Source: an uncultured Actinobaculum sp. (GTDB lineage: Bacteria; Actinomycetota; Actinomycetes; Actinomycetales; Actinomycetaceae). From it: a stretch of DNA of 64,000 nucleotides. The stretch's first letter is position 1; each line of letters starts with the position of its first letter. The DNA lies in assembly GCA_938020505.1 (NCBI GenBank), contig CALIHR010000026.1:15138-79137 (forward strand). Reading direction: 5' to 3'. The notes below the pieces were generated by a model, which made no database searches, had not been told where the DNA came from, and saw only the letters and a program-made list of their open reading frames with translations. This document shows positions 36,917-52,034 of the stretch, piece after piece. Both the position numbers and the translations under genes were made by a program.

Positions 36917-38620
36917 ATGGACCTACGGCTCGATGCGACGGCTTTTGACTACTCGTTCGTGGTCGTCTATCTGTTCTTCGTCATCGCCATCGGCGTCGTG
37001 ACGAAACGCAAGGTCCTCACGAGCGAGGACTACTTCCTCTCCGGGCGCTCGCTGCCCGCGTGGATCTGCGCGCTCGCCTTCCTTTCGGCCAACATCGGCG
37101 CTACAGAGCTCATCGGAATGGCGGCCAACGGATCGCAGTACGGCTTGGCGACGGTCCACTACTACTGGATCGGCGCGGTTCCGGCGATGGTCTTCCTCGG
37201 GCTGATCATGATGCCCTTCTACTACGGGTCGAAGGTCCGATCCGTCCCCGAGTACCTCAGGCTCCGCTTCGACCGGCCCACCCACGTCTACCAGTCGGCG
37301 GTTTTCGCCATAGCGACGATCCTCGTGGCCGGCATCAACCTCTTCGCCCTCGCGCTCCTCATCAACGTCCTCATCGGCTGGCCCCTGTGGGCCTCGATCA
37401 TCGCCGCGGCCGGCGTCGTGCTCCTCTACACGACGATGGGCGGGCTGACCGCCACGATGTACAACGAGGTGCTGCAATTCTTCATCATCGTCGCCTTCCT
37501 CGTCCCGCTCACCGTGGGCGGGCTCATCAGGGTCGGCGGCGTCGACGGCCTGCTCGAGACGATCCGCACCCACGAGCTCCTCGGGGAAAACGGGCTGTCC
37601 GTGTGGGGAGGGACGGGGCTCGCCAACACGACCAACCCCTATGGAAACTGGATTGCGCTGCTGCTCGGAATGGGCTTCGTCAACTCCTTCGGATACTGGA
37701 CCACCAACTTCACCGAGGTTCAGCGGGCCCTCTCGGCGAAAGACATGTCGGCCGCCCAGCGCACGCCGATCATCGCCGCGATCCCCAAGATGCTCCTTCC
37801 CGCGATCATCATCATGCCCGGCCTCATCGCCGCGGTCCTCATCCCCGAGCTTTCCAACGGCAAGCTTTCCCACAACGAGGCGCTGCCCGCCCTCATCGGA
37901 AAGGCCATGCCCACGGGGCTCGTGGGGCTCGCGCTGGCGGCGCTCATCGCGGCCTTCATGGCCGGCATGGCGGCAAATGTCTCGTCCTTCAACACGGTGG
38001 TGACCTACGACCTGTGGCAGACCTACATCCGCCCGGGCCGCAAAGACACCTACTACCTCCGCGTGGGCCGCAAACTCACGGTGGCCGGCGTCCTCATCGC
38101 CATCGGCGCAGCCTTCATCGCGGCGGAGTTCAACAACATCCAGGATTACATCCAGCTCCTGCAGTCGATCTTCAGCGCCCCCCTCTTCGCCACCTTCGTC
38201 TTGGGCATGTTCTGGAAGCGCATGAGCGGGCCGGCCGGGCTGTGGGGCCTCGTCGCCGGAGCCGCGGGCGCGGCCGCCGTGCAGATCGGCTACCAAAACG
38301 GCTTCCTGGAGTTCAACTCCCAGCAGGCGGCCTCCTTCACCGGGTCGGGCATGGCCTTCGTGTTCGACGTCGTCGTGTCCGTCCTCGTCACCCTCAGGAC
38401 TTCGCCCAAGCCGGTCGAGGAATTGGACGGGCTCGTGTGGGGCCGCACGAAGATGCCGATCAAGGGAAGCCTTCCGGCGCCGGACCTGCGCAAGGCCGCG
38501 GTCAAGGCCGAGCGCGAGCGCTTGAAAGAAGGGCGCGGGCTTGCCTGGTGGGAGAATCCGTGGCCGCTGGGCGCCGCCGTCACGGCAGTCCTGGTTCTAC
38601 TCAACATTTTCGTGGGATGA
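36917..38620 (+). CDS. Sodium:solute symporter family (SSS) transporter
   Basis: 13-TM SSS architecture with the DYFLSGRSLP N-terminal signature. Confidence 0.9.
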   Translation: MDLRLDATAFDYSFVVVYLFFVIAIGVVTKRKVLTSEDYFLSGRSLPAWICALAFLSANIGATELIGMAANGSQYGLATVHYYWIGAVPAMVFLGLIMMPFYYGSKVRSVPEYLRLRFDRPTHVYQSAVFAIATILVAGINLFALALLINVLIGWPLWASIIAAAGVVLLYTTMGGLTATMYNEVLQFFIIVAFLVPLTVGGLIRVGGVDGLLETIRTHELLGENGLSVWGGTGLANTTNPYGNWIALLLGMGFVNSFGYWTTNFTEVQRALSAKDMSAAQRTPIIAAIPKMLLPAIIIMPGLIAAVLIPELSNGKLSHNEALPALIGKAMPTGLVGLALAALIAAFMAGMAANVSSFNTVVTYDLWQTYIRPGRKDTYYLRVGRKLTVAGVLIAIGAAFIAAEFNNIQDYIQLLQSIFSAPLFATFVLGMFWKRMSGPAGLWGLVAGAAGAAAVQIGYQNGFLEFNSQQAASFTGSGMAFVFDVVVSVLVTLRTSPKPVEELDGLVWGRTKMPIKGSLPAPDLRKAAVKAERERLKEGRGLAWWENPWPLGAAVTAVLVLLNIFVG

Positions 38621-38632
38621 CGGAGGGAAACG

Positions 38633-39058
38633 ATGAGCAAGAAACGCTGTCCCCGTTTTTCGCGCATGGCTCTTTTGGACCTGCGCGCCTGGGTCGCCGC
38701 GATGTTTTTCGTGTTCGGCACGATGCTCGCCGTCTACGGGGCGTTCTTCGCCGACGGCGAGGATCTGGCCAAGGCCGCAGGAACCAACCTCGACCTGTGG
38801 ACCGGCGTAGGAATGATCGTCTTCGCCGCCGCCTTCGCGGTGTGGCTTCTCGCCCGCCCGCCTGAGTTCGACGTCGCCTCCGACGCGGAGGAAGCCGCCG
38901 ACGGCGTCGTCGCCGCGAACGGCGTTGACGGCCTTTTAGCGGAAGCGCCGGGGGCCGAGGGAAGCAAGGCCCAGACAGAAGACGGCGAGGCCCAGACAGA
39001 AGACGGCGAGGCCCAGACAGAAGACGGCGAGGCTCAGACGGAAGGCGCCAGGGGCTAA
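38633..39058 (+). CDS. Small two-TM membrane protein partnered with the SSS transporter. Its C-terminal acidic tail carries AQTEDGE repeats.
   Basis: Two hydrophobic helices (VAAMFFVFGTMLAVYGAFF and GVGMIVFAAAFAVWLLA), then three copies of EAQTEDG. Confidence 0.6.
   Translation: MSKKRCPRFSRMALLDLRAWVAAMFFVFGTMLAVYGAFFADGEDLAKAAGTNLDLWTGVGMIVFAAAFAVWLLARPPEFDVASDAEEAADGVVAANGVDGLLAEAPGAEGSKAQTEDGEAQTEDGEAQTEDGEAQTEGARG
38969..39031. repeat. Three perfect tandem 21-bp units (GCCCAGACAGAAGACGGCGAG) encoding (AQTEDGE)x3
   Basis: Read directly from the sequence. Confidence 0.7.
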
Positions 39059-39691
39059 CGGGCGCCAAAGACTAAGTCGCCAGGGGGTAAGGCCGCTTGG
39101 GAAACTCGCGCAGGGCGCCCGGCGGCGTCGGAAGCGCCTGAAAAAGCTCCGATCATAGAGCATGACATAGAAACTGCGTAAACGGCCGTCGTTGGGACAT
39201 GTGCGATCCTTGACGACCGTTTGTTTCCCTTCCCTGGCGTTTGCTTTGCTTTTCCGAACGGCGCCTCTGGCGTTTCCAAATGACGCCTCCGATTCAGCGC
39301 TCTGTTCCGACGGAGCGTCGAGCTTAGCAACGGCGCCGTCGTCCGTGGGAACGGCCGGGTGCATGCATGGGACCTTTGGACGAAAAGATTCTGTTCGAAT
39401 GCTGTTATTTTTTCTTCATGGTCTGGCGTGACGTGCCGGCCGATCTGGACACTCACAGAAGAATTGAGTCCATTTCTGCCGTTCACCGCCCCCAATGGCG
39501 GGAGACCATAAAACAAAAACCAATTTATGGACGCTCTCCGTCCAAATCACCTCACATTATCTTCCAGTTGAGCACAAGCGACGTTTCTTTCCCATTTTAC
39601 CGACTTGGGGAATTTTGCTTGTTTTTGCGGGGTTTTGGCGTGCCCTGCGCGCTTGCAAGGAAGCTCTCCTTCGATGTCGAAAGGGATATTC

Positions 39692-41083
39692 ATGCCTTCT
39701 ATCACCAGAGGTCTGCGGCGTGCCAGCGATCTCTCCATTTCCCAACGACGCTTCCTTTTGGTGCTCGTTTCCATTGGATCGTCGATCCTCTACACTCCGG
39801 CCTATCTGAAGAACGTCTTCTACGATCCGCTTAAGGAGGCGATCGGCACATCCAATGCGGGAGTGGGCGAGCTGCTCGGCTACTACGCCATCACCGCGAC
39901 GGTCTGCTACTTCCCGTCGGGCGTCGTCGCCGACAAGGTCAGGGTGCGCACGCTGGCGTGGGTCGGATTCACAACCACGGCGATGCTCACCTACCTCTAC
40001 GCCATGCTTCCCTCGTTCGCCGTTCTCAGACTCGTCTTCATCGGCATGGGCGTGACGACCATTCTCATCTGGTGGGGCATCCGGTTCAAGCTCGTCAGGC
40101 TCATCTCGGAGGAAGACGCCTATTCCCGCAACATCGGAATCTCCTACGGACTCTACGGCGCTGCGGGGCTTGTCGTCGGCTTCATCAGCATGAAGATCAT
40201 CGAGTGGTTTGAAGATTCGGCCGCAGTCGGGATTCAGTCTCTCCTCATCTTCCTCGGCACCCTCATTCTCATTCTCGGGATTCTCTCGTTCTTCTTCATT
40301 CCGAAGTTCGAGGGCGAGATCGATCCGACGAAGAAGTCCTTCGACATACGCCAGATTCGCGAGGCATTGAGGAACCCCGTCGTCTGGATTTCGGCCGCAT
40401 GCCTGTTCTGCGTGTACTTCTTCTACACGGGCGTCAACTACACGACCCCGTACCTCAAAAACGTGCTCCTGGCCTCCGCCTCCGTTACGAGCTTCGTTTC
40501 GATCGTCCGCACCTATGGCATCACCCTCGCCTCCGGGCCCGCCTTCGGCTTCCTCGCGAAAGCCACGGGCTCACCCTCGAAGGTCATCTTCGGCGGATCG
40601 ATAGTGTGCGCCGGCGGCCTGTTCGTGTTCACGATTCTTCCGGCCGAGCCGGGCATGGTTCTACTTGTCGCGGGGGTCACCATTGTGCTTGGATTCATCG
40701 CCAACGGCGTCTTCGGAATCGTTTCCTCCCAGTTGACCGAGGGGAAGGTCCCCATCCCGATCTTCGGCACGGCGGCCGGCATTCTCTCGGTCATCGGCTT
40801 CCTTCCGGACACCTTCTCTTCGACGTGGTTCGGAAAGATGATCGACGATCGGCCTAAGGACGCCTACGCCGAGATCTTCCTGATTCTCGCGGGCTTTGCC
40901 GTGGCGGCGGGCGTCCTCGCCCTCATACTCCTGTGGTACGTCAGGCGCACGGGGAAGGCGAAGGCGGCGCCGTCGGAGCCGACGCCGGTTCCGTCTTACG
41001 AGGAAGCCGCTGAGCCGGCGGCCGCGGCGAAGTCGCCTTTCGGTTCGAAGAAGGGCTCGGCTTGGAGCTCGCATGCCGAATAA
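39692..41083 (+). CDS. MFS transporter, first gene of the cai-like operon and a candidate substrate/product exchanger replacing the BCCT antiporter CaiT
   Basis: 12-TM MFS architecture. Start chosen at the ATG with GAAAGGGA ribosome-binding site. It is preceded by a 630-bp AT-richer leader. Confidence 0.8.
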   Translation: MPSITRGLRRASDLSISQRRFLLVLVSIGSSILYTPAYLKNVFYDPLKEAIGTSNAGVGELLGYYAITATVCYFPSGVVADKVRVRTLAWVGFTTTAMLTYLYAMLPSFAVLRLVFIGMGVTTILIWWGIRFKLVRLISEEDAYSRNIGISYGLYGAAGLVVGFISMKIIEWFEDSAAVGIQSLLIFLGTLILILGILSFFFIPKFEGEIDPTKKSFDIRQIREALRNPVVWISAACLFCVYFFYTGVNYTTPYLKNVLLASASVTSFVSIVRTYGITLASGPAFGFLAKATGSPSKVIFGGSIVCAGGLFVFTILPAEPGMVLLVAGVTIVLGFIANGVFGIVSSQLTEGKVPIPIFGTAAGILSVIGFLPDTFSSTWFGKMIDDRPKDAYAEIFLILAGFAVAAGVLALILLWYVRRTGKAKAAPSEPTPVPSYEEAAEPAAAAKSPFGSKKGSAWSSHAE

Positions 41084-42086
41084 ACTCAAGGTTCCCGCGA
41101 TGTGGAGCGAGCAGATGGGCGCCGTCGTCGCCAAGCAGAACGAGCTCGCTGCGGGCGTCTATTCCAGCGGTCAAACCTTCGAGCAGGCGCGCGAGGGGTA
41201 TCGCAAGGAACGGGTTTTCTGGAACGACGGCGGCCCCGTGCCGGCCTCGACGATCGAGAAGGACGTCGCCACCCGGCACGGGCGGGTGCGCGTGCGGATG
41301 CATCGCCCCGACGGCGCCGCCGTCCTCCCCGGGATCGTCTATGTCCACGGGGGCGGATGGGTGCTGGGAGACCTCGACACCCACGATCGAATAACCCGGA
41401 CTCTCGCCGAGAAGACCGGGGCGGCCGTCGTCGCCGTCGATTACAAGCTCTCGCCGGAGGCGCGCTTTCCGCGGGCGCTCGAAGAATGCGTCGACGTCGT
41501 CTCGGCGCTGAAGGCCGACGCCGACAAATGGGGGCTGGATCCCCGGAAACTCGCTTTGGCGGGCGACTCCGGGGGCGCTTCTCTCGCGCTCGGGACGTTC
41601 TTGCACCTGCGGGACGAGGAGAAGGCGGCCGAAGGCGTCGGCGCGCTCTTGCTGTTCTACGGAGCCTTCGGGCTGCGCGACTCGATGTCGATGCGGCTGT
41701 TCGGAGGCGAATGGGACGGTCTGAAGGAGGAGGATTTCGCCTGGTACAAGGACCTCTATCTGGCCGACGCCGCAGACGAGCGCAGCCCCTATTTCGACCT
41801 TCTGGCGAACGATCTGACAGGGCCGATGCCGCCGTGCTACATCGCCGCGGCCGGGCTCGATCCGCTGAGGGACGATTCGCGCACGCTCGCGACAATGCTT
41901 GCGAGCTCCGGGGGCGACGTGGAGAAAGAGGAGTTTCCCGACGTCATCCACGGCTTTTTGCACCATTCCAGAATGCTCGACGCCGCGAGGGACGCCCTCG
42001 CGCATGCGTCGGACTTCTTCCGCTCGCGCGTCGGGAAGGCCCCGGCGACAACTCAACAGACAATCGATATCACAACTGAGGAGTAG
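41073..42086 (+). CDS. Alpha/beta-hydrolase esterase of the hormone-sensitive-lipase family (family IV)
   Basis: Oxyanion-hole motif HGGGW and nucleophile motif GDSGG, plus DPLRDD/HGF catalytic Asp/His context. It overlaps the MFS stop by 11 nt and sits immediately upstream of caiA. Confidence 0.85.
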
Positions 42087-42088
42087 AA

Positions 42089-43222
42089 ATGGATTTCTCA
42101 TTCACCGAGGAACAGCAGCTGATCGTCGACGGCTTCGCCGACGTCATGAATTCGCGCTCATGGGAAAAGTACTTCCATGAGTGCGACGAGACGTCGACCT
42201 ACCCCGTCGAATGGGTGAAGGCTCTGTGCGACGTCGGATTCGACCGCATCCTCCTTCCCGAGGAGCATGACGGGCTCGGCCTCGACTGGGTCACGCTGGC
42301 CGCCGTGTACGAGGTGCTCGGCCGCCTCGGAGGCCCCACGTACATCCTCTACCAGCTGCCCGGCCTCGAAACCGTCGTACGCGAAGGCACCGACGAGCAG
42401 CGGGAGAAGGTCTTCTCCTATCTCGGCACGGGCGAGCAGGTCCTCAACTACGCGATGACCGAGCCGAGCGCGGGATCGTCCTGGAACGACATGCGCACGA
42501 CGTACACGCGGCGCGACGGCAAGGTCTATCTCAACGGGCACAAGACGTTCCAGACGTCCGCGATGCGGGTTCCCTACCTGGTGGTGATGGCCCGCAACGC
42601 CGACGACATGGACGTCTACACCGAATGGTTCGTCGACATGAGCAAGCCGGGCATTGCGAAGGAGCCCCTGCACAAGCTGGGGCTCAGAATGGATTCGTGC
42701 GCCGAGGTCTACTTCGACGACGTCGAACTCGAAGAGTCGGACCTCTTTGGCTCGGAAGGCAACGGCTTCATGCGCGGCGTCGCGGATTTCGACCTCGAGC
42801 GCCTCCTCGTGGCCCTGACGAACTACGGCCAGGCCTACTGCGCCTTCGAAGACGCCGCCAAATACGCCAACCAGCGCGTCCAGGGCGGCCAGGCGATCGC
42901 GCGCCGCCAGCTCATCCAGTTGAAGTTCGCCGACATGCAGGTGCGCCTGACGAATATGCGCAACATGCTTTTCGAGATCGCTTGGAAGCACGACGTCGGC
43001 AAGCTCGGCCGCGGCGACTGCTCGATGGCCAAGTACTACTGTTCGCATGCGGCCTTCGAGGTGGTCGATGACGCCCTGCAGGTCCTCGCCGGCGTCGGAA
43101 TCACCGGCGATCACCGAGTCCAGCGCTTCTACAGGGATTTGCGGGTGGACAGGGTCTCCGGGGGGACCGACGAGATGATGATCCTCACGGCCGGCCGCGC
43201 GGCGCTGAAGAACTACCGCTGA
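42089..43222 (+). CDS. caiA: Crotonobetainyl-CoA reductase/dehydrogenase CaiA (acyl-CoA dehydrogenase family)
   Basis: Near-colinear similarity to E. coli CaiA, recalled from memory. Shared strings include [45 protein letters not shown] and [29 protein letters not shown]. Confidence 0.9.
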
Positions 43223-43289
43223 GCGGAGCCGTGGCAGGCAGGCCCGGCAAAAGCAAACAGACCGAGCACAACAAACAGAAAGGTTAGAC

Positions 43290-44498
43290 ATGGAAACGAC
43301 AAAGCCGTCGTTCGGCCCGCTGGACGACGTCAGAGTCCTCTATTCGGCCGTTGAGATCGCCGCCCCCACCGCGGCCGAGATCATGTCCGAGTGGGGCGCC
43401 GACGTCACGTGGATCGAGAACATGTGGACGGGCGACTCGATGCGGGACACCACGTGGACGAAGGAGATGGAGAGGCGCAACCAGCGCTCGATCTCCATGA
43501 ACCCCTTCACCGACGAAGGCAAGGAGATCCTTCGCCGTTTGGTCAAGGAGACGGACATCTTCATCGAAGCCTCCAAGGGCCCGACGTTCGCCCGCAAGGG
43601 GATCACCGACGAGATGCTGTGGGAGGCCAATCCCTCCCTCGTCATCGTCCACGTTTCGGGGTTCGGCCAGTGGGGCGATCCTGCCGTGGTCAACGCCGCC
43701 GCGTACGATCTCACGGTCGCCGCATACGCCGGAATCATCGCGCAAAACGGCACGCCCGAGCAGCCGACGAACATCGCCCCCTATTCGGGCGACTATTTCA
43801 ACTCGCTCATGATCGTCTCCTCGGCGCTGGCCGCCCTGCACAAGGCCAAGGCGACGGGCAAGGGGGAGAGCATCGATCTGGCGATGTACGAGACGCTCCT
43901 GCGCGTCGGCACGTACTACATGATGGACTACCTCAACGCCGGCATAACCTACCCCCGTCCGGGCGCACGCCACCAGAATCTGTGCGCGATCGGCGAATAC
44001 GCCTGCAAAGACGGGTACATCGGCCTATGCGTCTACGGCGTCCCCCAGAACAAGTACCTTTTGGAGACCATCGGCCTGGGCGATCTGTGGGGGACTCCCG
44101 AGTACCCGGAGGACACGTCCGCGCTGTGGCTGGACGGGCCCAAGGCGGACCTCATCCAGCGCAAGCTCGAAGAGTACCTTGCGGGCCAGCTCAAGGCCGA
44201 CGTCCAAAAGGACTTCGTGGAGCATCGGATCGCGGCCCAAGCGGTCAACGAGTTCGAGGACATCGTGGCCGAGGACCACGTGGCCCGGCGCGAGTGCTTT
44301 ATCGAGTGGGAGAACGCCGAGGGCGCGCCCGTCAAGGGGCTCAACACGTTCCCGAAGTTCGCAAACAACCCCGGGGGCTTCTGGCGTCCGATGCCGCCTC
44401 TCGGCTACGACACCCGCGACGTGCTGACCCGGGCGGGGTTCACGCCGGAGGATCTGGCGCGGTTCGAGGAATCGGGCGCCGTCAGGTTTGGAGACTGA
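43290..44498 (+). CDS. caiB: L-carnitine CoA-transferase CaiB (family III CoA transferase)
   Basis: Similarity to E. coli CaiB, recalled from memory: FGPL...VEIA.P...EWGA.V.WIEN, DIFIEASKGPTFARKGITDEMLWEANP, GESIDLAMYETLLRVGTYYMMDY and KFANNPGGFWR. Confidence 0.9.
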   Translation: METTKPSFGPLDDVRVLYSAVEIAAPTAAEIMSEWGADVTWIENMWTGDSMRDTTWTKEMERRNQRSISMNPFTDEGKEILRRLVKETDIFIEASKGPTFARKGITDEMLWEANPSLVIVHVSGFGQWGDPAVVNAAAYDLTVAAYAGIIAQNGTPEQPTNIAPYSGDYFNSLMIVSSALAALHKAKATGKGESIDLAMYETLLRVGTYYMMDYLNAGITYPRPGARHQNLCAIGEYACKDGYIGLCVYGVPQNKYLLETIGLGDLWGTPEYPEDTSALWLDGPKADLIQRKLEEYLAGQLKADVQKDFVEHRIAAQAVNEFEDIVAEDHVARRECFIEWENAEGAPVKGLNTFPKFANNPGGFWRPMPPLGYDTRDVLTRAGFTPEDLARFEESGAVRFGD

Positions 44499-44543
44499 GG
44501 CGAGGGCGGGCGCTTCGGCGCCCGCCAAGCCCGCTAGGGTGAG

Positions 44544-46070
44544 ATGAATACGCGAGAATACCCCAATGTGCGCGACCTCTGGGAGGAGAGGGCGGCGCTT
44601 TGGGCCGGCCGGGAGTTCCTCGTCCACGAGGACCCGGACACGGCCAAGGTGGAGCGATACACGTACGCTCGCATGGACCGTGAAATGAAGGCCGCGGCCT
44701 CAATGTTCGCCTCCCTCGGCGTCGAGGCGGGCGACCGGGTCGGCCTGCACATGTGCAACCGGCCCGAGTTCGTCGAGTGCTTCCTCGCGCTGGCCGCGAT
44801 CGGCGCCGTCGTCGTGCCGATCGGCCCCGCAAGCACGGCGGCCGAATGCGCCCGCGTCGTCGAGGAGTGCGACATCCGCGTGCTCGTCAGCGAGTTTCCG
44901 GAAGACGCCGGGCGCCTGGAGGGCGTCGCCGTCGTCTGCCTCGACGACGGCGACTACGAGGCCATGAAAGCCGATCGGGCGGGGACGCCCCCTCCGAGGC
45001 CAGCGGTCGGGCCGGGCGACCTGTTGGAGGTCATGTACACCTCGGGCACGACGTCGCGCCCCAAGGGGGTGATGTTCACGCATGCCAACGCCGTGTTCTC
45101 GGGGAAGTACGTCGCATGGGAGCTGGCGCTCAGCGAGGCCGACAGGTACCTGACGACGATGTCCGTCACGCACGTCAACCTCCAGCTCTCGGCCCTCATG
45201 CCCGCCGTTTACGCCGGGGCCGCCCTCGTTCTCGTGCGCCGATACTCGGCCAGCAGGATGTGGTCGCAGGTGCGCAGGCACAGGGCGACGGTGATCCAGG
45301 CGATGGCCATGATCGTCAAAACGCTCATGGCCCAGCCTGTCGCTTCGGGCGAACGCGACCACAGCGTGAGAGCCGTCCACTACTTCCTTCCCCTTCCCAA
45401 AGGGATCAAGGAGGCATTCGAGGAACGCTACGGGGTGCGGCTGCTCAACAACTACGGCTCCTCCGAGACCCTCGTCGGCGTCGTCACCGACCTTCCCGAC
45501 GGGCGGTCCAAGTGGCCGTCCGTCGGTTTGGCCGGTCCGGGCTACGACGTCAGGATCGCCGGGGAAAACGGCTTGGCGCTGCCGCCCGGCGAGCGCGGGG
45601 AGATACAGGTGCGCGGGCAGGCCGGCGTCTCCCTCATGGCCGGATACTGGCGGGACGAGGAATCCACACGGGCGGCATTCACGGCAGACGGCTGGCTCCG
45701 CACGGGAGACTGCGGGTACGCCGACGCCGAGGGTTGGCTCTACTTCGTCGACCGCATGGGCGACATCGTCAAGCGTGCGGGCGAGAACATTTCGGCCTGC
45801 GAGGTGGAGGTCGCCATTCTCGAGCATCCCGACGTCGCCGACGTCGCCGTGCTGGGCATCTCCGATTCCATCCGGGACGAGGCCGTCAAAGCAGTGGTCG
45901 TCCCCAAGCCGGGGCGCCGGCCCACCGCCGAGGACGTGCGGGACTTTCTCTCGCTGCGCCTCTCGTTCTTCAAAATCCCCTCCGTCATCGAATTCCGCGA
46001 CGCGCTGCCGCGCGGAGAGTACGGAAAAGTCCTGAAAAACCAGCTCAAAACACAGAAATCAACAACATAG
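44544..46070 (+). CDS. caiC: Crotonobetaine/carnitine-CoA ligase CaiC (ANL adenylating enzyme)
   Basis: AMP-binding motif YTSGTTSRPKGV. RYSASRMWSQV matches the E. coli CaiC KYSARAFWGQV, and GISDSIRDEAVKAVVV matches GIKDSIRDEAIKAFVV. Confidence 0.85.
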   Translation: MNTREYPNVRDLWEERAALWAGREFLVHEDPDTAKVERYTYARMDREMKAAASMFASLGVEAGDRVGLHMCNRPEFVECFLALAAIGAVVVPIGPASTAAECARVVEECDIRVLVSEFPEDAGRLEGVAVVCLDDGDYEAMKADRAGTPPPRPAVGPGDLLEVMYTSGTTSRPKGVMFTHANAVFSGKYVAWELALSEADRYLTTMSVTHVNLQLSALMPAVYAGAALVLVRRYSASRMWSQVRRHRATVIQAMAMIVKTLMAQPVASGERDHSVRAVHYFLPLPKGIKEAFEERYGVRLLNNYGSSETLVGVVTDLPDGRSKWPSVGLAGPGYDVRIAGENGLALPPGERGEIQVRGQAGVSLMAGYWRDEESTRAAFTADGWLRTGDCGYADAEGWLYFVDRMGDIVKRAGENISACEVEVAILEHPDVADVAVLGISDSIRDEAVKAVVVPKPGRRPTAEDVRDFLSLRLSFFKIPSVIEFRDALPRGEYGKVLKNQLKTQKSTT

Positions 46071-46082
46071 AAAGGCAATGCC

Positions 46083-46958
46083 ATGGCCATCAACACCGAC
46101 ATGGTCGGCCAGACCTTCGGCCCGTTCGTCCGCGACTACACCTTCCGCGACCTCGAGTTGTTCGCACTCGGCTGCGGCGCTGGAATCGACGGCAAGAACG
46201 GCCTGGAGTACCTCAACGAACACGACGAGCGCGATCCGAAGCTCAAGGTTCTTCCCATGTTCGGCGCGATGCTCATCGTCGATTCCGAGGTGACCCGGAC
46301 CATCGACTACGGATACAACTATGCGGGCTCTCTGCACTGGGGCTTCGACATACGCTTCCACCGGCCCATCGTGAAGATGGCCGACCGCCTGGAGACGAAG
46401 GTCAAGCTCGAAGGCCTCTACGACCGCGGCGAGGGCAGGGGGCTGCTCGCCCAGCACATCGGCGACACCTGCGATTCCGAGGGAAATCTGCTGTTCACCA
46501 ACGAATCTTGGGACTGCCTCATCTACGACGGCGGCTGGGGCGGCCCCAAACCGCCGAAGGACATCGTCGAAATGCCCGATCGGCCCGCCGACGTCGAGAC
46601 AACCGAGACGATCCCCGAGAATCAGGCGCTCATCTACCGCCTCTCCGGTGACTACCACCCCCAGCACATCGACTGGGAGTATGCCGCTGAAAACGGCGAG
46701 CCGCGCCCGATTCTCCACGCCATCAGCTACGCGGGGGTCGTCATGCGCCATGCCATCGACGCCTTCGTGCCAGGCGAACCCGAGCGCATCACGCGTTTCA
46801 AGACCCGCATCACCTCGCCGGTCCATCCAGGATCGACGCTTACGACGCGCTTGTGGAAGGTCGCCGACGGCGAACTCCGCTTCGCCCTCGTCGACGCCGA
46901 CGTCGATGAGACCGGCGCCAAGCCCCATCTGAACTGGGGAATCATCGAGTACAAGTAA
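46083..46958 (+). CDS. MaoC-like double hot-dog (R-specific) enoyl-CoA hydratase/dehydratase. It sits where the crotonase-fold CaiD lies in enterobacterial cai operons.
   Basis: Two hot-dog halves; the C-terminal half has the hydratase-2-type motif region (YRLSGDYHPQHIDWEYAAENG). Confidence 0.8.
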   Translation: MAINTDMVGQTFGPFVRDYTFRDLELFALGCGAGIDGKNGLEYLNEHDERDPKLKVLPMFGAMLIVDSEVTRTIDYGYNYAGSLHWGFDIRFHRPIVKMADRLETKVKLEGLYDRGEGRGLLAQHIGDTCDSEGNLLFTNESWDCLIYDGGWGGPKPPKDIVEMPDRPADVETTETIPENQALIYRLSGDYHPQHIDWEYAAENGEPRPILHAISYAGVVMRHAIDAFVPGEPERITRFKTRITSPVHPGSTLTTRLWKVADGELRFALVDADVDETGAKPHLNWGIIEYK

Positions 46959-47088
46959 AGCTCGGGCACAGGCGAGGCCGATAGGCTCGCGGGGCCGGTT
47001 CTCGCGAGCCTGTCGGCCGGCCCGCCGACAGCATGGCCTCAAAACGAGAGCACGGTCCAAGATCTAGAATCGAGAAAGGGAAGCGGCT

Positions 47089-47721
47089 GTGAGAATCGAT
47101 TCCGTCGTCGTCGGAAGCTATCGCGCCAACTGCTACGTTCTGCGCGAAGGGGCGTCGATGATCGTCGTCGACCCGGGAGACGAACCCGCCGAAGTGCTCG
47201 GCCTCATCGGCTCCGCAGGCGAGGCCGGCGCGGCGGACTACGTGCAGATCGTCGCCTCACACTGCCACTGCGACCACATCGGCGCGGTCAACGAGGTGGC
47301 CGAGGCTTGCGCCGCCTCCTTCGCCGTCGGGCGCGAGGACGGGCACGCCGTCGCCGACCCCCGTCTTTCCGGCTTCGACGAAGAGGGGCGCGACTATCGG
47401 GTCGAAAAAGTCGATCGGCTGCTGGACGACGGCGACGAGATCGCCCTCGGCCCCTACCGCTTCCGGGTCATATCGACGCCCGGCCACACTCCGGGGTCCG
47501 TCTGCCTCTACTGCGCCGAACTCAGTCTCATGTTCACCGGCGACACCCTCTTCGCCAACGGTGTCGGGCGCACGGACTTCATCCGCGGCGACGCCGAGGC
47601 GATGCGCCAAACCTGTTCCAAGCTCGGCGCGTATCCCGACTCGACGGTCCTTCTTCCCGGCCACGGCCCCTCCACGCGCCTGGGCGTCGAAAAGGCGCGC
47701 AACCCTCTGCTGCGCGCGTAA
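47089..47721 (+). CDS. MBL-fold metallo-hydrolase (glyoxalase-II-like), last gene of the cai-like operon
   Basis: HCHCDHIG metal-binding motif (HxHxDH), TPGHTPGS and a downstream His. Confidence 0.85.
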   Translation: MRIDSVVVGSYRANCYVLREGASMIVVDPGDEPAEVLGLIGSAGEAGAADYVQIVASHCHCDHIGAVNEVAEACAASFAVGREDGHAVADPRLSGFDEEGRDYRVEKVDRLLDDGDEIALGPYRFRVISTPGHTPGSVCLYCAELSLMFTGDTLFANGVGRTDFIRGDAEAMRQTCSKLGAYPDSTVLLPGHGPSTRLGVEKARNPLLRA

Positions 47722-47775
47722 ATCCGGCCGGGGCGCCTCTTCCCTCCAAGGGCAGAGCCTTTCAGCCTCCGCGCG

Positions 47776-48411
47776 TCAGGAGACCGAGCGCAGAGCCCGC
47801 AGGGGAGAGGCGCCGAGCTGGTCGTTGACTAGGTTTTCCACGTATTCGGGGATTTCGCCGAGGAAACATTCGATGTTCTCCGGCATGAGCGAGAAGGCGC
47901 GCATGAGCACCGAGCCTTCGATGGCGTCCAGAAGGCGTGTGACGGACGTCCCCTCCGGCAGGAGGCCGGCCGATTTGAACTCCCACAGGCGCGCTCGGAT
48001 CGCGGCGATCGGGTCTCGATACGTGTGGATGTAAGCGGCGCGGACCACGGGGTTGACTTCGCATGCCATCTCGACGAAAAGGCGCCTGACAGCCTGCGCA
48101 TGCTCGCCGAGGTACAGCCGCATCCTGTATTCGGCCTCGTTGGACAGCACCTCGTGCGCACTGTCGCCGACCGGCCCGGGCGCGGCCACGACGGTCCGGA
48201 AGGCGTCGATGAACAGTTCCTCGATACTGGCCCATCTCGTGTACATCGACGACTTGCCGACGCCGGCGGCCTTGGCCACCTTCGTCATGTTGAAACCGTG
48301 CCATCCTGCATCGCCATACAGATCCAGGGCGGCTTTGAGTATCTTGCCGTCGGCTTCGACGTTGCGAGGCCGCCCTACGGGGCCGCGCTGGACTGCATGA
48401 ATGTCGACCAC
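47776..48411 (-). CDS. TetR family transcriptional regulator, convergent with the cai operon and divergent from fixABCX
   Basis: GTG start with AAGGAGGAG ribosome-binding site. HTH GFNMTKVAKAAGVGKSSMYTRWAS. Confidence 0.8.
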   Translation of the reverse strand: MVDIHAVQRGPVGRPRNVEADGKILKAALDLYGDAGWHGFNMTKVAKAAGVGKSSMYTRWASIEELFIDAFRTVVAAPGPVGDSAHEVLSNEAEYRMRLYLGEHAQAVRRLFVEMACEVNPVVRAAYIHTYRDPIAAIRARLWEFKSAGLLPEGTSVTRLLDAIEGSVLMRAFSLMPENIECFLGEIPEYVENLVNDQLGASPLRALRSVS

Positions 48412-48624
48412 GAAATCTCCTCCTTGTCCGTTCTGGCTAAGGCCCACGGCTGCGTTGGCGAGGTCAATTATACGCAATGAACCTGGGAACTTGGAGAGAC
48501 GGCTCACAGGCATATGGGCGTGAGAGTCTTTGGTCCTTATTGCAGGAGAAGCAACAGGGTAACATTGACTTCAATCGAACAATCACTGTGTCCACAAAGG
48601 TGCGGAGATTGGGAAAGGCCTTTT

Positions 48625-48647
48625 TTCGGACGTAGAAAGTCCGAAAT
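48625..48647. promoter_or_regulatory. Inverted repeat TTTCGGAC-N7-GTCCGAAA in the TetR/fixA intergenic region. It is a candidate operator.
   Basis: Read directly from the sequence. Confidence 0.35.
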
Positions 48648-48714
48648 CGGCTTCCGGGGTTGCCCGCGAGGCGTCGCAACGCGCGATGTGGGAAACTGGT
48701 GGGGCCGAAGATAC

Positions 48715-48729
48715 GTTTCATCGAAACGC
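48715..48729. promoter_or_regulatory. Palindrome CGTTTC-ATC-GAAACG about 60 bp upstream of the fixA ATG. It is a candidate TetR operator.
   Basis: Read directly from the sequence. Confidence 0.4.
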
Positions 48730-48788
48730 AATCGCTTTCCACAGGGCAGTGGTGCAGCCAGGCCCTCAACAGACAGAGAGAGGCTTCA

Positions 48789-49541
48789 ATGACCGTAGTT
48801 GTCGCTTACAAGTACGCGGCCAATCCACAGGATGCGTCGGTCGGCGCCGACGGCGTCGTCGATTGGTCGCGGGCCAAGTCCGCCGTTTCCGAATACGATC
48901 CCGTGGCAATCCAGCTGGGCCGCAACCTCGCGGACGCCGAGGGCGTTGAGCTCGTCGGCGTCACCGTCGGCAAGAGCGACGTGGCCGGATCGATGGCCAA
49001 GAAGAACGCCATGTCGAAGGGATTCGACAGGGGAGTCGTCGTCGCCGACGACGCGACCGCAGGATGGAACGCCACGAAGACCGCTTCTGCGCTGGCGGAG
49101 CTCGTCAAATCCGTCGAAGGCGCGGACATTCTGCTCGCCGGCGATTCCTCGATCGACGAGGGCACGAAGATCGTGCCGGCACTCGTCGCCGGATTCCTCG
49201 GATGGCCGGCCTTCCAGGGCGTCTCAGCGGTCGTCAAGACCGCCGACGGGTATGAAATCACGCAGAACGTCCCCGGCGGGACCCGCACGATCGCCGTCTC
49301 AGGCCCCGTCGTCGTCTCCGCTTCCTCGGACGCCGTCGCCCCCAAGGTCCCCTCCATGAAGGACATCCTCGCCGCCGGCAAGAAGCCCGTGGAGAAGGCC
49401 GAGGTTCCTTCCGTCGACGTCGAAATCACCGTCGTCGGCCGCTCGAAGCCCGAGCGCAAGGCTCGCAAGAACAAGATTTTCGAGGGCGCGGACGCCCCCG
49501 CCCAGCTCGTTGCCGCCCTGCGTGCCGACGGCGTGCTCTGA
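48789..49541 (+). CDS. fixA: Electron transfer flavoprotein beta subunit FixA
   Basis: Typical ETF-beta N-terminus (VVAYKYAANPQD). GAGAGAGG ribosome-binding site. Confidence 0.9.
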   Translation: MTVVVAYKYAANPQDASVGADGVVDWSRAKSAVSEYDPVAIQLGRNLADAEGVELVGVTVGKSDVAGSMAKKNAMSKGFDRGVVVADDATAGWNATKTASALAELVKSVEGADILLAGDSSIDEGTKIVPALVAGFLGWPAFQGVSAVVKTADGYEITQNVPGGTRTIAVSGPVVVSASSDAVAPKVPSMKDILAAGKKPVEKAEVPSVDVEITVVGRSKPERKARKNKIFEGADAPAQLVAALRADGVL

Positions 49542-49564
49542 GAGTTGAAAGGACACAGACAACA

Positions 49565-50434
49565 ATGGCAAACACCTGGATCATCGCGGTTGACCCGCAG
49601 ATTGCCTCTCTCGTCGAGCAGGGGCGGGCGATCGGCGGCTCGGTCACGGCAGTGACCGTCGGCGGCACGCCCGTCGCGGGAGTCGACAAGGTCATCGACG
49701 TGGCGCTTCCCGAGGGCGTTCCCGCCGAGGCCGCTGCGCCCGCGGTCGCAGCGGCGGTCGCAGCCGAGGCCGGCGACGTCGTCCTCGCCGCCAACAAGCC
49801 CGCCGAGCGGGTTCTCGCCGGCGCCGTCGCGGCCAAACTGAACGCCGCGTTCCTCCCCGGCCTCAAGTCGGCCAAGGCCGGCGCGGCCGAGCTCTCGCGT
49901 TACGGCGGCCTTTCCTTTGAAAGCGTCACCTTTGACTCGCCCGTCGTCGCGGTTCTCGACGGCGGCGCGGAGGCCGAGGGCCAGCCTGTGCCCGCCGAGT
50001 CTGCCGAAGGCTCGGTCTACGAGGCCAAGGTCACCGGCCAGGACAAGACGGAGGTCGTTGCGGTCAACCTGGGGGCGGCCAAGCGCGTCGTCGCAGCGGG
50101 ACGCGGTTTCAAAGCGAAGGAAGACCTCAAACTGGCCGAGGAGCTCGCAGCCGCAATCGGCGCCGAGCTCGCGTGCTCGCGCCCCCTCGCCGAAGGCGCG
50201 GATTGGATGGCCGTCGACCGCTACATCGGCGTCTCCGGCCAGGCCGTCTCGCCCGAGCTCTACATCGCCGTCGGCATCTCCGGTCAGATTCAGCACACGG
50301 TCGGCATGAGCGATTCGAAGGTCGTCGTGGCAGTCAACAGCGATCCGAAGGCGCCGATGTTCGCGGGCGCGGATTACGGAATCGTCGGCGATCTTTACGA
50401 GGTTCTTCCGGCGCTGACGGAGGCTGCTAAGTAG
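49565..50434 (+). CDS. fixB: Electron transfer flavoprotein alpha subunit FixB (short form)
   Basis: The C-terminal FAD-binding region (YIAVGISGQIQHTVGMSDSKVVVAVNSDPKAPMFAGADYGIVGDLYEVLPAL) is the canonical ETF-alpha signature. Confidence 0.9.
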   Translation: MANTWIIAVDPQIASLVEQGRAIGGSVTAVTVGGTPVAGVDKVIDVALPEGVPAEAAAPAVAAAVAAEAGDVVLAANKPAERVLAGAVAAKLNAAFLPGLKSAKAGAAELSRYGGLSFESVTFDSPVVAVLDGGAEAEGQPVPAESAEGSVYEAKVTGQDKTEVVAVNLGAAKRVVAAGRGFKAKEDLKLAEELAAAIGAELACSRPLAEGADWMAVDRYIGVSGQAVSPELYIAVGISGQIQHTVGMSDSKVVVAVNSDPKAPMFAGADYGIVGDLYEVLPALTEAAK

Positions 50435-50439
50435 GAAAC

Positions 50440-51738
50440 ATGGCCGAAGAGAACTACGATTTCGACGTCATCGTCGTCGGCGGGGGAGTGGCGGGTTCAG
50501 TCTGCGCCTGCCTGCTGGCGAAGAAAGGGCGCGAAGTCCTCCTCGTCGAGAGGGGAATGGAGCCGGGGTCGAAGAACCTGTCGGGCGGCGTCTTCTACTG
50601 TCGCGTCATGCAGGAGGTGTTTCCGAACTTCATCGAGGAGGCGCCGATCGAACGGCGCATCACCCGCAACTGCTTGAGCTTCCTCAACCCGACGAACTTC
50701 GTGAACGTCGACTACTGGGACTCGCGGCTGGCCGAGCCGGTCAACGCGGTCACGGTTCTGCGGGCGAAGTTCGATCCGTGGCTCGCGGAGCAGGCGGAGG
50801 AAGCGGGCGTGACGGTCATGCCCGGCGTCAAGGTCGACGGGATCATCCGCGAGGGCGGACGGTTCGTCGGCATCCGCGCGGGCGAGGACGAGCTGAGGGC
50901 CCGCGTCGTCGTCGCGGCCGACGGCGTCAACTCCTTCATTTCCCAGGACGCGGGGATCCGCGGCAAGGAGCCGTTGGAGAACCTGGCGGTGGGTGTGAAG
51001 TCCGTGATTTGCCTCGGCGAGGAGGAGGTCAAGAAGCGCTTCAACCTCGTCGGCGACGAAGGAGCGGCCTACGCCGTCGTCGGAGACTGCACCGAGGGCG
51101 TGGCCGGCGGCGGGTTCATGTACACGAACAAGGAGTCCGTCTCCATCGGCATTGTCGCGCGGCTGGACGATCTGACGAAGAAAGGCAAGTCCTCTTCGGA
51201 TCTGCATGACCATTTCCTCTCGCACCCGGCGATCGCGCCGTTCCTGGAGGGCGGCGAACTTCTCGAGTACGGCTGCCACCTTGTGGCCGAGGGCGGAGAG
51301 AAGATGCAGCACGATCTGGTGCGCAACGGACTCGTCGTGATCGGCGACGCCGCCGGCTTCACCCTCAACACCGGCTTCACGGTTCGGGGGATGGACTTGG
51401 CGGCCGGTTCCGCCGTCGCCGCCGCCACGGCCGTCGATCACGCGCTGGAAACCGGGGACTGCAGCCGCGTGGGGTTGGAACGATACATCGCCGAGTATAA
51501 GAAGTCTTTCGTAGGCAAGGACATGGCGACGTACGCCAAGGCGCCCGACTTCCTCGAGAACGACGAAATGTACGGGGATCTCGGATTGATGCTGGCGGAC
51601 GTGCTGTACGGCGTGTACAACCTCGATCTGACGCCCCGCAAGCACATCCTTCCCACCGCGTTGTCCGCTTTCAAGGCATCCGGTTTGAAGATTCGACGGA
51701 TGGCCAAAATTGGCTTCCAGGCAGTGAGGTCTCTGTGA
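50440..51738 (+). CDS. fixC: FAD-dependent oxidoreductase FixC (ETF-quinone oxidoreductase-like)
   Basis: N-terminal GGGVAGSVCACLLA dinucleotide-binding motif and FixC-type length (432 aa). Confidence 0.9.
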   Translation: MAEENYDFDVIVVGGGVAGSVCACLLAKKGREVLLVERGMEPGSKNLSGGVFYCRVMQEVFPNFIEEAPIERRITRNCLSFLNPTNFVNVDYWDSRLAEPVNAVTVLRAKFDPWLAEQAEEAGVTVMPGVKVDGIIREGGRFVGIRAGEDELRARVVVAADGVNSFISQDAGIRGKEPLENLAVGVKSVICLGEEEVKKRFNLVGDEGAAYAVVGDCTEGVAGGGFMYTNKESVSIGIVARLDDLTKKGKSSSDLHDHFLSHPAIAPFLEGGELLEYGCHLVAEGGEKMQHDLVRNGLVVIGDAAGFTLNTGFTVRGMDLAAGSAVAAATAVDHALETGDCSRVGLERYIAEYKKSFVGKDMATYAKAPDFLENDEMYGDLGLMLADVLYGVYNLDLTPRKHILPTALSAFKASGLKIRRMAKIGFQAVRSL

Positions 51739-52034
51739 TGTCTGATTTTTTCGAAGGCAGCGTTCCTGCCCGCCTGGGCAAGAACGTCTATGAAGTCGAC
51801 GAAGGCAATTCGCATATCGAGGTCAACCAGGAGATAGCGAAGGCTACCGGGGCCGGCAAAGTGCTGGTCAAGGTGTGCCCGGCCCACGTCTACTCCGAGG
51901 AACCCGACGGCACGATCTCCGTAGAGTTCGCCGCATGCCTCGAATGCGGAACGTGCCGTGCCGTTGCGGCTCCGGGACTGCTCAAGTGGCACTATCCCGA
52001 GGGTTCGATGGGCATCATGTTCCGTGAGGGTTGA
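51735..52034 (+). CDS. fixX: Ferredoxin-like protein FixX
   Basis: 99 aa with Cys motif CPAHVYSE...CLECGTC. It overlaps the fixC stop by 4 nt. Confidence 0.85.
   Translation: MMSDFFEGSVPARLGKNVYEVDEGNSHIEVNQEIAKATGAGKVLVKVCPAHVYSEEPDGTISVEFAACLECGTCRAVAAPGLLKWHYPEGSMGIMFREG

Follow-up and report, generated by a model that had tools for sequence, protein, structure and literature searches.

A cai-linked MaoC-family hot-dog protein as a candidate non-orthologous carnitinyl-CoA dehydratase

The cai/fix locus and its surroundings

The window, by which we mean the whole stretch of 64,000 nucleotides analyzed here (from an uncultured Actinobaculum sp., an actinobacterium of oral type, GC ~65%), contains a cai/fix carnitine-reduction locus that lacks CaiT, CaiD, and CaiE and runs in the order MFS-esterase-CaiA-CaiB-CaiC-MaoC-MBL / TetR / FixABCX (Table 1). 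The preliminary description had put a hot-dog gene in the "A-B-C-(D) slot" of this locus, and the placement was accurate: CaiA and CaiB score above their cut-offs, the ligase has CaiC as its best match, FixABCX follow, and no CaiD is present.

Table 1. Features of the cai/fix locus in the window, with related features of other loci and contigs where a locus or contig is named.
Feature	Position	Strand	Basis
MFS transporter, in place of BCCT antiporter CaiT; start codon uncertain	39605..41083	+	Pfam MFS_1, E 3.5e-19
Aes/HSL-family esterase (Abhydrolase_3), candidate O-acylcarnitine hydrolase	41073..42086	+	NCBIfam NF007547
CaiA, crotonobetainyl-CoA reductase/dehydrogenase	42089..43222	+	NCBIfam NF002885 equivalog, 709 bits, cut-off 540
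CaiB, L-carnitine CoA-transferase	43290..44498	+	NCBIfam NF002914 equivalog, 672 bits, cut-off 413
CaiC-like betaine:CoA ligase	44544..46070	+	Best NCBIfam match NF005947, 539 bits, cut-off 651 not reached
cai-linked MaoC-family gene (P0001), proposed carnitinyl-CoA dehydratase	46083..46958	+	Pfam, homology, tree, model
Variant hydratase-2 motif YRLSGDYHPQHIDWEYA	46635..46685	+	P0001 sequence, family alignment
Codon of catalytic Asp190	46650-46652	+	P0001 sequence
Codon of catalytic His195	46665-46667	+	P0001 sequence
Perfect 19-bp GC-rich stem-loop, no T-tract, directly 3' of the MaoC stop and before the MBL gene	46976..47018	+	RNA fold
Glyoxalase-II-like metallo-beta-lactamase-fold (MBL) hydrolase, possible thioesterase	47089..47721	+	Pfam Lactamase_B; GloB match below cut-off
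TetR-family regulator between cai and fix genes	47776..48513	-	Pfam TetR_N
fixA, start uncertain	48660-49541	+	Pfam ETF domains
fixB	49565-50434	+	Pfam ETF domains
fixC	50440-51738	+	Pfam ETF/ETF-QO domains
fixX	51735-52034	+	Pfam ETF-QO domains
MaoC domain of a 2994-aa ORF, source genome	C25:23858-24121
CaiD and adjoining MaoC gene between caiC and caiE, Shewanella fidelis	L001:9123-10852
CaiD and adjoining MaoC gene between caiC and caiE, Ferrimonas kyonanensis	L088:9106-10858
Asp-less sister-subfamily gene, GIYHHLH, Endozoicomonas	L089:8123-8971
Asp-less sister-subfamily gene, GNYHPLH, Ferrimonas	L097:10886-11737

Because the CaiC-like ligase stays below the equivalog cut-off of NF005947, the crotonobetaine/carnitine-CoA ligase model, its exact betaine substrate is not certain. 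The longest open reading frame of the esterase starts at 40896, and its match to the NCBIfam acetyl esterase model (394 bits, cut-off 389) begins at residue 60 of this long frame, with the probable start lying at ~41073. Pfam matches across fixABCX (48660..52034) comprise ETF, ETF_alpha, ETFQO_UQ-bd, and Fer4_ETF_QO, and NCBIfam matches of the FixA and FixB type are below their cut-offs; the four genes are predicted from these domains to form an ETF and ETF-quinone-oxidoreductase-like electron supply. The MBL protein could act as a non-orthologous thioesterase stand-in for CaiE.

The MaoC-family gene encodes a protein of 291 amino acids (P0001) from an ATG start codon, with the ribosome-binding site GAAAGG 8 nt upstream and a gap of 12 nt from the stop of the CaiC-like gene. 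Directly behind it, the RNA fold of positions 46955-47090 reaches -63.2 kcal/mol (z = -3.0). The stem-loop found here might serve as a terminator, as an attenuator, or to stabilize an mRNA end between MaoC and the MBL gene. Were it to terminate or attenuate the cai transcript, MaoC would be the last obligatory gene. An Rfam scan of 38500-49000 matched no family, stem-loop included, and scans of 39000-49000 for sigma-70 promoters and intrinsic terminators returned none above shuffled expectation.

CaiD was looked for in the cluster and in the whole genome (a 2.65 Mb assembly that is 99.98% complete), and none was found. Since the sole crotonase-fold (ECH_1) gene of the genome is MenB, which scores 518 bits against the DHNA-CoA synthase model, the genome has neither a CaiD nor a beta-oxidation pathway. 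Other MaoC domains occur only in two large open reading frames of 2994 and 799 amino acids, the former read, by its size alone, as a FAS-I-like protein. The source organism is thus without a beta-oxidation hydratase, and the MaoC protein of the cai operon is its only free-standing enoyl-CoA hydratase.

Fold, active-site motif, and phylogeny

Pfam assigns MFE-2_hydrat-2_N to residues 19-142 of P0001 and MaoC_dehydratas to residues 164-266, both above their cut-offs. Both 3khp, a MaoC-family protein of Mycobacterium tuberculosis (E 1.7e-34), and 1s9c, the human MFE-2 hydratase-2 domain (E 2e-31), align with P0001 over its whole length, and its AlphaFold model, built on an alignment of 46 sequences, has a pLDDT of 94.7 and TM scores of 0.86-0.91 against these same two structures. 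All of this bears out the earlier view of a double hot-dog protein of the hydratase-2 type. An NCBIfam profile search of P0001 gave zero matches. The protein is a hot dog without the crotonase fold, it stays short of the CaiD model NF002936 with its 500-bit cut-off, and it is an analogue of CaiD and not a member of the CaiD family.

The hydratase-2 motif has the form [YF]-x(1,2)-[LVIG]-[STGC]-G-D-x-N-P-[LIV]-H-x5-[AS]. When set against it, YRLSGDYHPQHIDWEYA keeps the Asp and His of the catalytic dyad and the final Ala, but has His in place of Asn and Gln in place of Leu/Ile/Val. The family shows no variation at Asp190 and His195, nor at three family-specific residues: His192 (canonically Asn), Gln194 (canonically Leu/Ile/Val), and Trp198 (canonically the Pro that follows HxD). 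The canonical GDxNPLHxDPxxA dominates 150 representative relatives, and within that set PQH and DW are found in the cai-linked family only. Altogether, 23 residues are fixed within the clade but rarely seen elsewhere, among them F88, E141, W143, D144, H192, Q194, W198, Y200, S215, and H223.

A search of 5.8 billion clustered proteins gave at least 120 relatives, with identities of 57-95% among the matches listed and sources in Actinomycetaceae, Propionibacteriaceae, Cellulomonas, Coriobacteriales, Desulfovibrio, Sporomusa, Peptococcaceae, Enterobacillus, Endozoicomonas, Ferrimonas, and Shewanella, and their database names are generic or wrong ("MaoC/PaaZ C-terminal domain-containing protein," "acyl dehydratase," and bile-acid enoyl-CoA hydratase). 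When 1.84 billion representatives were searched exhaustively, a single 50%-identity cluster at 570 bits took in the whole family; outside it, the next full-length relative scored 202 bits at 43% identity, and the others had at most 38%. The contigs of the nearest outside relatives, P0127 and P0138, span just 1.3-1.7 kb and show no informative gene context. Identity is therefore at least 57% inside the cai-linked MaoC family and at most 43% to its nearest outside relative. P0001 belongs to this family by its signature GD[YF]HPQH[IV]DW[ED]YA, its identity of at least 57% to the members, and its place beside caiC. One member, P0028, is carried by a Curtobacterium plasmid, which means that the cluster can be mobile.

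Maximum-likelihood phylogeny unites the 23 cai-linked sequences in a single clade whose branches are very short (support 95/89), with two paralogues without the catalytic Asp as sister. Clade and paralogues share a stem of 0.52 (support 100/99), and all other hydratase-2 relatives are placed on long branches apart from the cai-linked group. Nesting within fatty-acid or polyketide dehydratase clades in an unrelated context had been named beforehand as an outcome that would speak against the proposal; the family instead forms a clade of its own, not nested in such clades, and its context is not unrelated. Within the tree, the Coriobacteriia sequences are nested in the actinomycete group.

Gene order and conservation among carriers

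Scanning one genome per species turned up a relative in 218 genomes, and we kept the 80 best loci, all of them actinobacterial. MaoC stands directly after caiC in 73 of the 73 loci among them that reach upstream of MaoC. Where these loci extend far enough, they follow the order MFS-esterase-CaiA-CaiB-(FixAB)-CaiC-MaoC-(MBL)-(TetR)-Fix, and none contains a CaiD. The MFS transporter is kept as the first gene in 64 of the best 80 loci and the esterase in 62, and the MBL gene follows MaoC in 43 and the TetR regulator is kept in 42. CaiE is absent where the MBL gene follows MaoC, and in NCBIfam CaiE scores near its PaaY relative. Loci of the Propionibacteriaceae/Cellulomonas type (L049-L075) carry a fixA-like match between caiB and caiC, with fixB there only in L062, and have fixCX directly after MaoC, a layout unlike that of the window in which MaoC still follows caiC. 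In Actinomyces marseillensis (L027), the esterase-CaiA pair is tandemly duplicated.

Loci that keep the gene after caiC number more than 85 and represent several phyla, and in every locus examined across these phyla cai genes adjoin the family member. Desulfovibrio aminophilus has caiT-A-B-C-MaoC-fixAB…fixCX, Sporomusa rhizae has caiT-A-B-fixABCX-caiC-MaoC, and a Coriobacteriales metagenome-assembled genome has MFS-A-B-fixAB-C-MaoC-MFS-fixCX. Enterobacillus tribolii (fixXCBA / caiT-A-B-C-MaoC) retains the Escherichia coli layout with MaoC instead of caiDE. We tested for CaiD with the NCBIfam equivalog NF002936 at its cut-off of 500 bits: 0 of 45 actinobacterial carrier genomes scored above it (best score 199.9 bits; the E. 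coli control passes), and the Sporomusa genome had none above it either, while Ferrimonas passes. The present locus is one member of a real and widespread variant with a candidate replacement for CaiD.

Two carriers depart from simple replacement. Shewanella fidelis and Ferrimonas kyonanensis have caiT-A-B-C-D-MaoC-E-esterase, and each encodes a true CaiD (549 and 550 bits). This co-occurrence, which simple replacement does not explain, argues against pure redundancy, and the role of MaoC may not be strictly redundant with that of CaiD. Endozoicomonas carries two tandem MaoC paralogues, one of which has the Asp replaced, and Ferrimonas has a second CaiB-MaoC-BCCT-CaiA module ~15 kb from its main cai operon whose MaoC belongs to the Asp-less subfamily. 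When 301 genomes of the order that surrounds Ferrimonas were searched for the family, the centre genome alone matched.

In comparisons with the proteins of the window, MaoC ranks first in conservation in 65 of 68 actinobacterial loci. Its median identity is 85.5%, against 77.7% for CaiA, 70.4% for CaiB, 46.4% for CaiC, and 47% for the MBL gene. This ranking is biased, since similarity to MaoC was the basis on which the loci were selected, and the MaoC figure is partly an ascertainment effect. In seven distant loci chosen for diversity, MaoC (58-65%) is about as conserved as CaiA (61-65%) and exceeds CaiB, CaiC, and the Fix proteins.

Predicted reaction, alternatives, and comparison with known systems

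The pathway needs a dehydratase, the genome has no other candidate, the gene takes the CaiD slot across phyla, members of the family were found beside cai genes only, and both residues of the catalytic dyad are present. Together these point to P0001 as a non-orthologous carnitinyl-CoA dehydratase (EC 4.2.1.149), a function we consider reasonably probable. Acylcarnitines or carnitine would enter through the MFS transporter, the esterase would strip the acyl group, and CaiC and CaiB would generate L-carnitinyl-CoA. P0001, with its hydratase-2 fold and its Asp190/His195 pair, would then convert L-carnitinyl-CoA to crotonobetainyl-CoA and H2O, after which CaiA would reduce crotonobetainyl-CoA with electrons from FixABCX and CaiB would hand the CoA on to the next carnitine. 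We infer both substrate and reaction from genomic context, and P0001 would supply the dehydratase step of an anaerobic carnitine-to-gamma-butyrobetaine pathway without CaiD.

Stereochemistry complicates this picture. From trans-2-enoyl-CoA, hydratases 1 and 2 form alcohols of opposite configuration, and the canonical hydratase-2 product is of the D type (3R). The preliminary description had held that L-carnitine, being the R acid, is native substrate chemistry for MaoC and hydratase-2 enzymes, and this was wrong. Under the CIP rules, the CH2N+ arm at C3 takes priority over the CH2-CO arm in carnitine, whereas in an ordinary 3-hydroxyacyl-CoA the CH2-CO arm ranks higher, so that the same spatial arrangement is called S in the latter and R in carnitinyl-CoA. 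L-carnitinyl-CoA therefore has the L-type geometry of a crotonase (hydratase-1) product, which fits CaiD, and the hydratase-2 geometry corresponds to D-carnitinyl-CoA, which counts against the dehydratase reading. What survives of the earlier proposal of an analogous carnitinyl-CoA dehydratase is its support from comparative genomics, namely the slot after caiC, the absence of CaiD in the carriers tested, the separate clade, and the intact dyad. The replacement of CaiD is a stereochemical puzzle and not a case of native chemistry.

Given this geometry, P0001, if it is active on L-carnitinyl-CoA, must use the opposite face or the (Z)-enoyl isomer. Crotonase turns cis-2-enoyl-CoA into the D-alcohol, and by analogy a (Z)-enoyl route may be an option for P0001. 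The invariant changes in the motif are candidates for stereochemical re-tooling: N192H, L194Q, and P198W, with the gained residues E141, W143, D144, F88, and Y200, would likely underlie both an altered stereochemistry and the binding of trimethylammonium, and the acidic and aromatic character of the gained residues would suit such a head group. We see an even chance that the family would be the first hot-dog enzyme to act on a crotonase-type, L-configured 3-hydroxyacyl-CoA, dehydrating L-carnitinyl-CoA through the opposite face or through (Z)-crotonobetainyl-CoA, with a re-tooled GDxHPQH site.

Other functions were also weighed. The protein could act on another CoA thioester, such as that of a hydroxy-betaine or a sulfonium analogue, or it could be a hot-dog thioesterase or a non-catalytic partner. 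The score of CaiC below its equivalog cut-off, the second module in Ferrimonas (which suggests more than one substrate for such modules), the co-occurrence of CaiD in two genera, and the existence of Asp-less paralogues would all fit such a role. However, neither the Asp/His dyad nor the hydratase-2 architecture varies within the main clade, the scores of CaiA and CaiB are those of true equivalogs, and the pathway needs a dehydratase for which the genome offers no other candidate, so we regard these roles as unlikely.

Alternatively, the canonical geometry could be kept, with P0001 interconverting crotonobetainyl-CoA and D-carnitinyl-CoA. Together with CaiD, it would then epimerize carnitinyl-CoA, act as a "carnitine racemase," and open the pathway to D-carnitine. 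Hydratase-2 geometry does map onto D-carnitinyl-CoA, CaiD and MaoC do adjoin in Shewanella and Ferrimonas, and a cai-associated carnitine racemase activity has long been known in E. coli and Proteus, where its basis is loosely assigned to CaiD (PMC2131755). Most carriers, however, have no CaiD and would thus be left without a route from L-carnitine to crotonobetainyl-CoA, yet they keep CaiA, CaiB, the esterase, and FixABCX. Nor can canonical behavior be assumed for a motif that differs from the canonical form at three invariant positions, and D-carnitine is not a known natural nutrient. We consider this explanation quite unlikely. The database names of the relatives might suggest a generic enzyme of fatty-acid or PHA metabolism, an (R)-specific enoyl-CoA hydratase placed beside cai genes by chance. 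This reading is most improbable and was rejected on the context survey and the phylogeny, given the cai linkage in every locus examined from several phyla, the separate clade, and a genome without a beta-oxidation crotonase.

If a P0001-type enzyme does act on an L-configured substrate, it would break the textbook rule that hydratase 1 gives the L alcohol and hydratase 2 the D alcohol, and the species that carry both CaiD and MaoC would provide a natural side-by-side comparison of the two enzymes. Current databases and HMM sets take caiTABCDE as the definition of the pathway, and CaiD-less clusters are consequently missed in oral, gut, skin-associated, and environmental Actinobacteria, as well as in Desulfovibrionaceae, Negativicutes, and Coriobacteriia. 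A recent gamma-butyrobetaine cluster database, for example, was built strictly on caiTABCDE (PMC11857547). Should the family prove to be the first hot-dog enzyme on an L-configured 3-hydroxyacyl-CoA, surveys based on caiTABCDE would leave about half of nature's carnitine-reduction clusters uncounted.

Full-text searching for literature that joins MaoC or hot-dog proteins with crotonobetainyl-CoA, carnitinyl-CoA, or butyrobetaine found none, and the only hint is a single sentence by the authors of Scoary2 (Genome Biol 2024, PMC11007987), in which an "enoyl-CoA hydratase" between caiABC and fixABCX of Propionibacterium freudenreichii might fill the CaiD gap. That report names neither the fold, nor the family, nor the stereochemical problem, and gives no enzymology (PMC11007987). 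The P. freudenreichii cluster comprises an MFS transporter, an alpha/beta-hydrolase, caiABC, the "enoyl-CoA hydratase," and fixABCX, with no caiD or caiT (PMC11007987). It represents the same gene-content type as the cai/fix locus of the window, and its hydratase may be a member of the cai-linked family. Strains in which the cluster is intact, again with no caiD, alter the carnitine and acylcarnitine content of milk, a strain in which fixABC has been split off accumulates carnitine, and the MFS and hydrolase pair, homologous to that of the window, associates with acylcarnitine levels (PMC11007987). A 2020 Propionibacterium paper noted caiABC and fixABCX without the hydratase.

P0001 resembles CaiD of E. 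coli and Proteus, a member of the crotonase superfamily, in its slot after caiC, in its CaiA, CaiB, CaiC, and FixABCX neighbors, and in the reaction that the pathway requires. It differs from CaiD in having a double hot dog instead of the crotonase fold, in showing no sequence similarity, and in a canonical stereochemical outcome that is the opposite. The catalytic pair of crotonase consists of two Glu residues, as opposed to Asp and His in P0001. With hydratase 2 of MFE-2 (human 1s9c; Candida tropicalis 1pn2/1pn4) and with 3khp, P0001 shares a two-domain hot-dog architecture, a catalytic Asp/His pair in the C-terminal domain, and 28-31% identity over the full length. Unlike these proteins, it stands alone and is cai-linked, it reads GDYHPQHIDWEYA in place of GDxNPLHxDPxxA and carries the 23 clade-specific invariants, and its presumed substrate is a short cationic betainyl-CoA rather than a fatty-acid or bile-acid enoyl-CoA.
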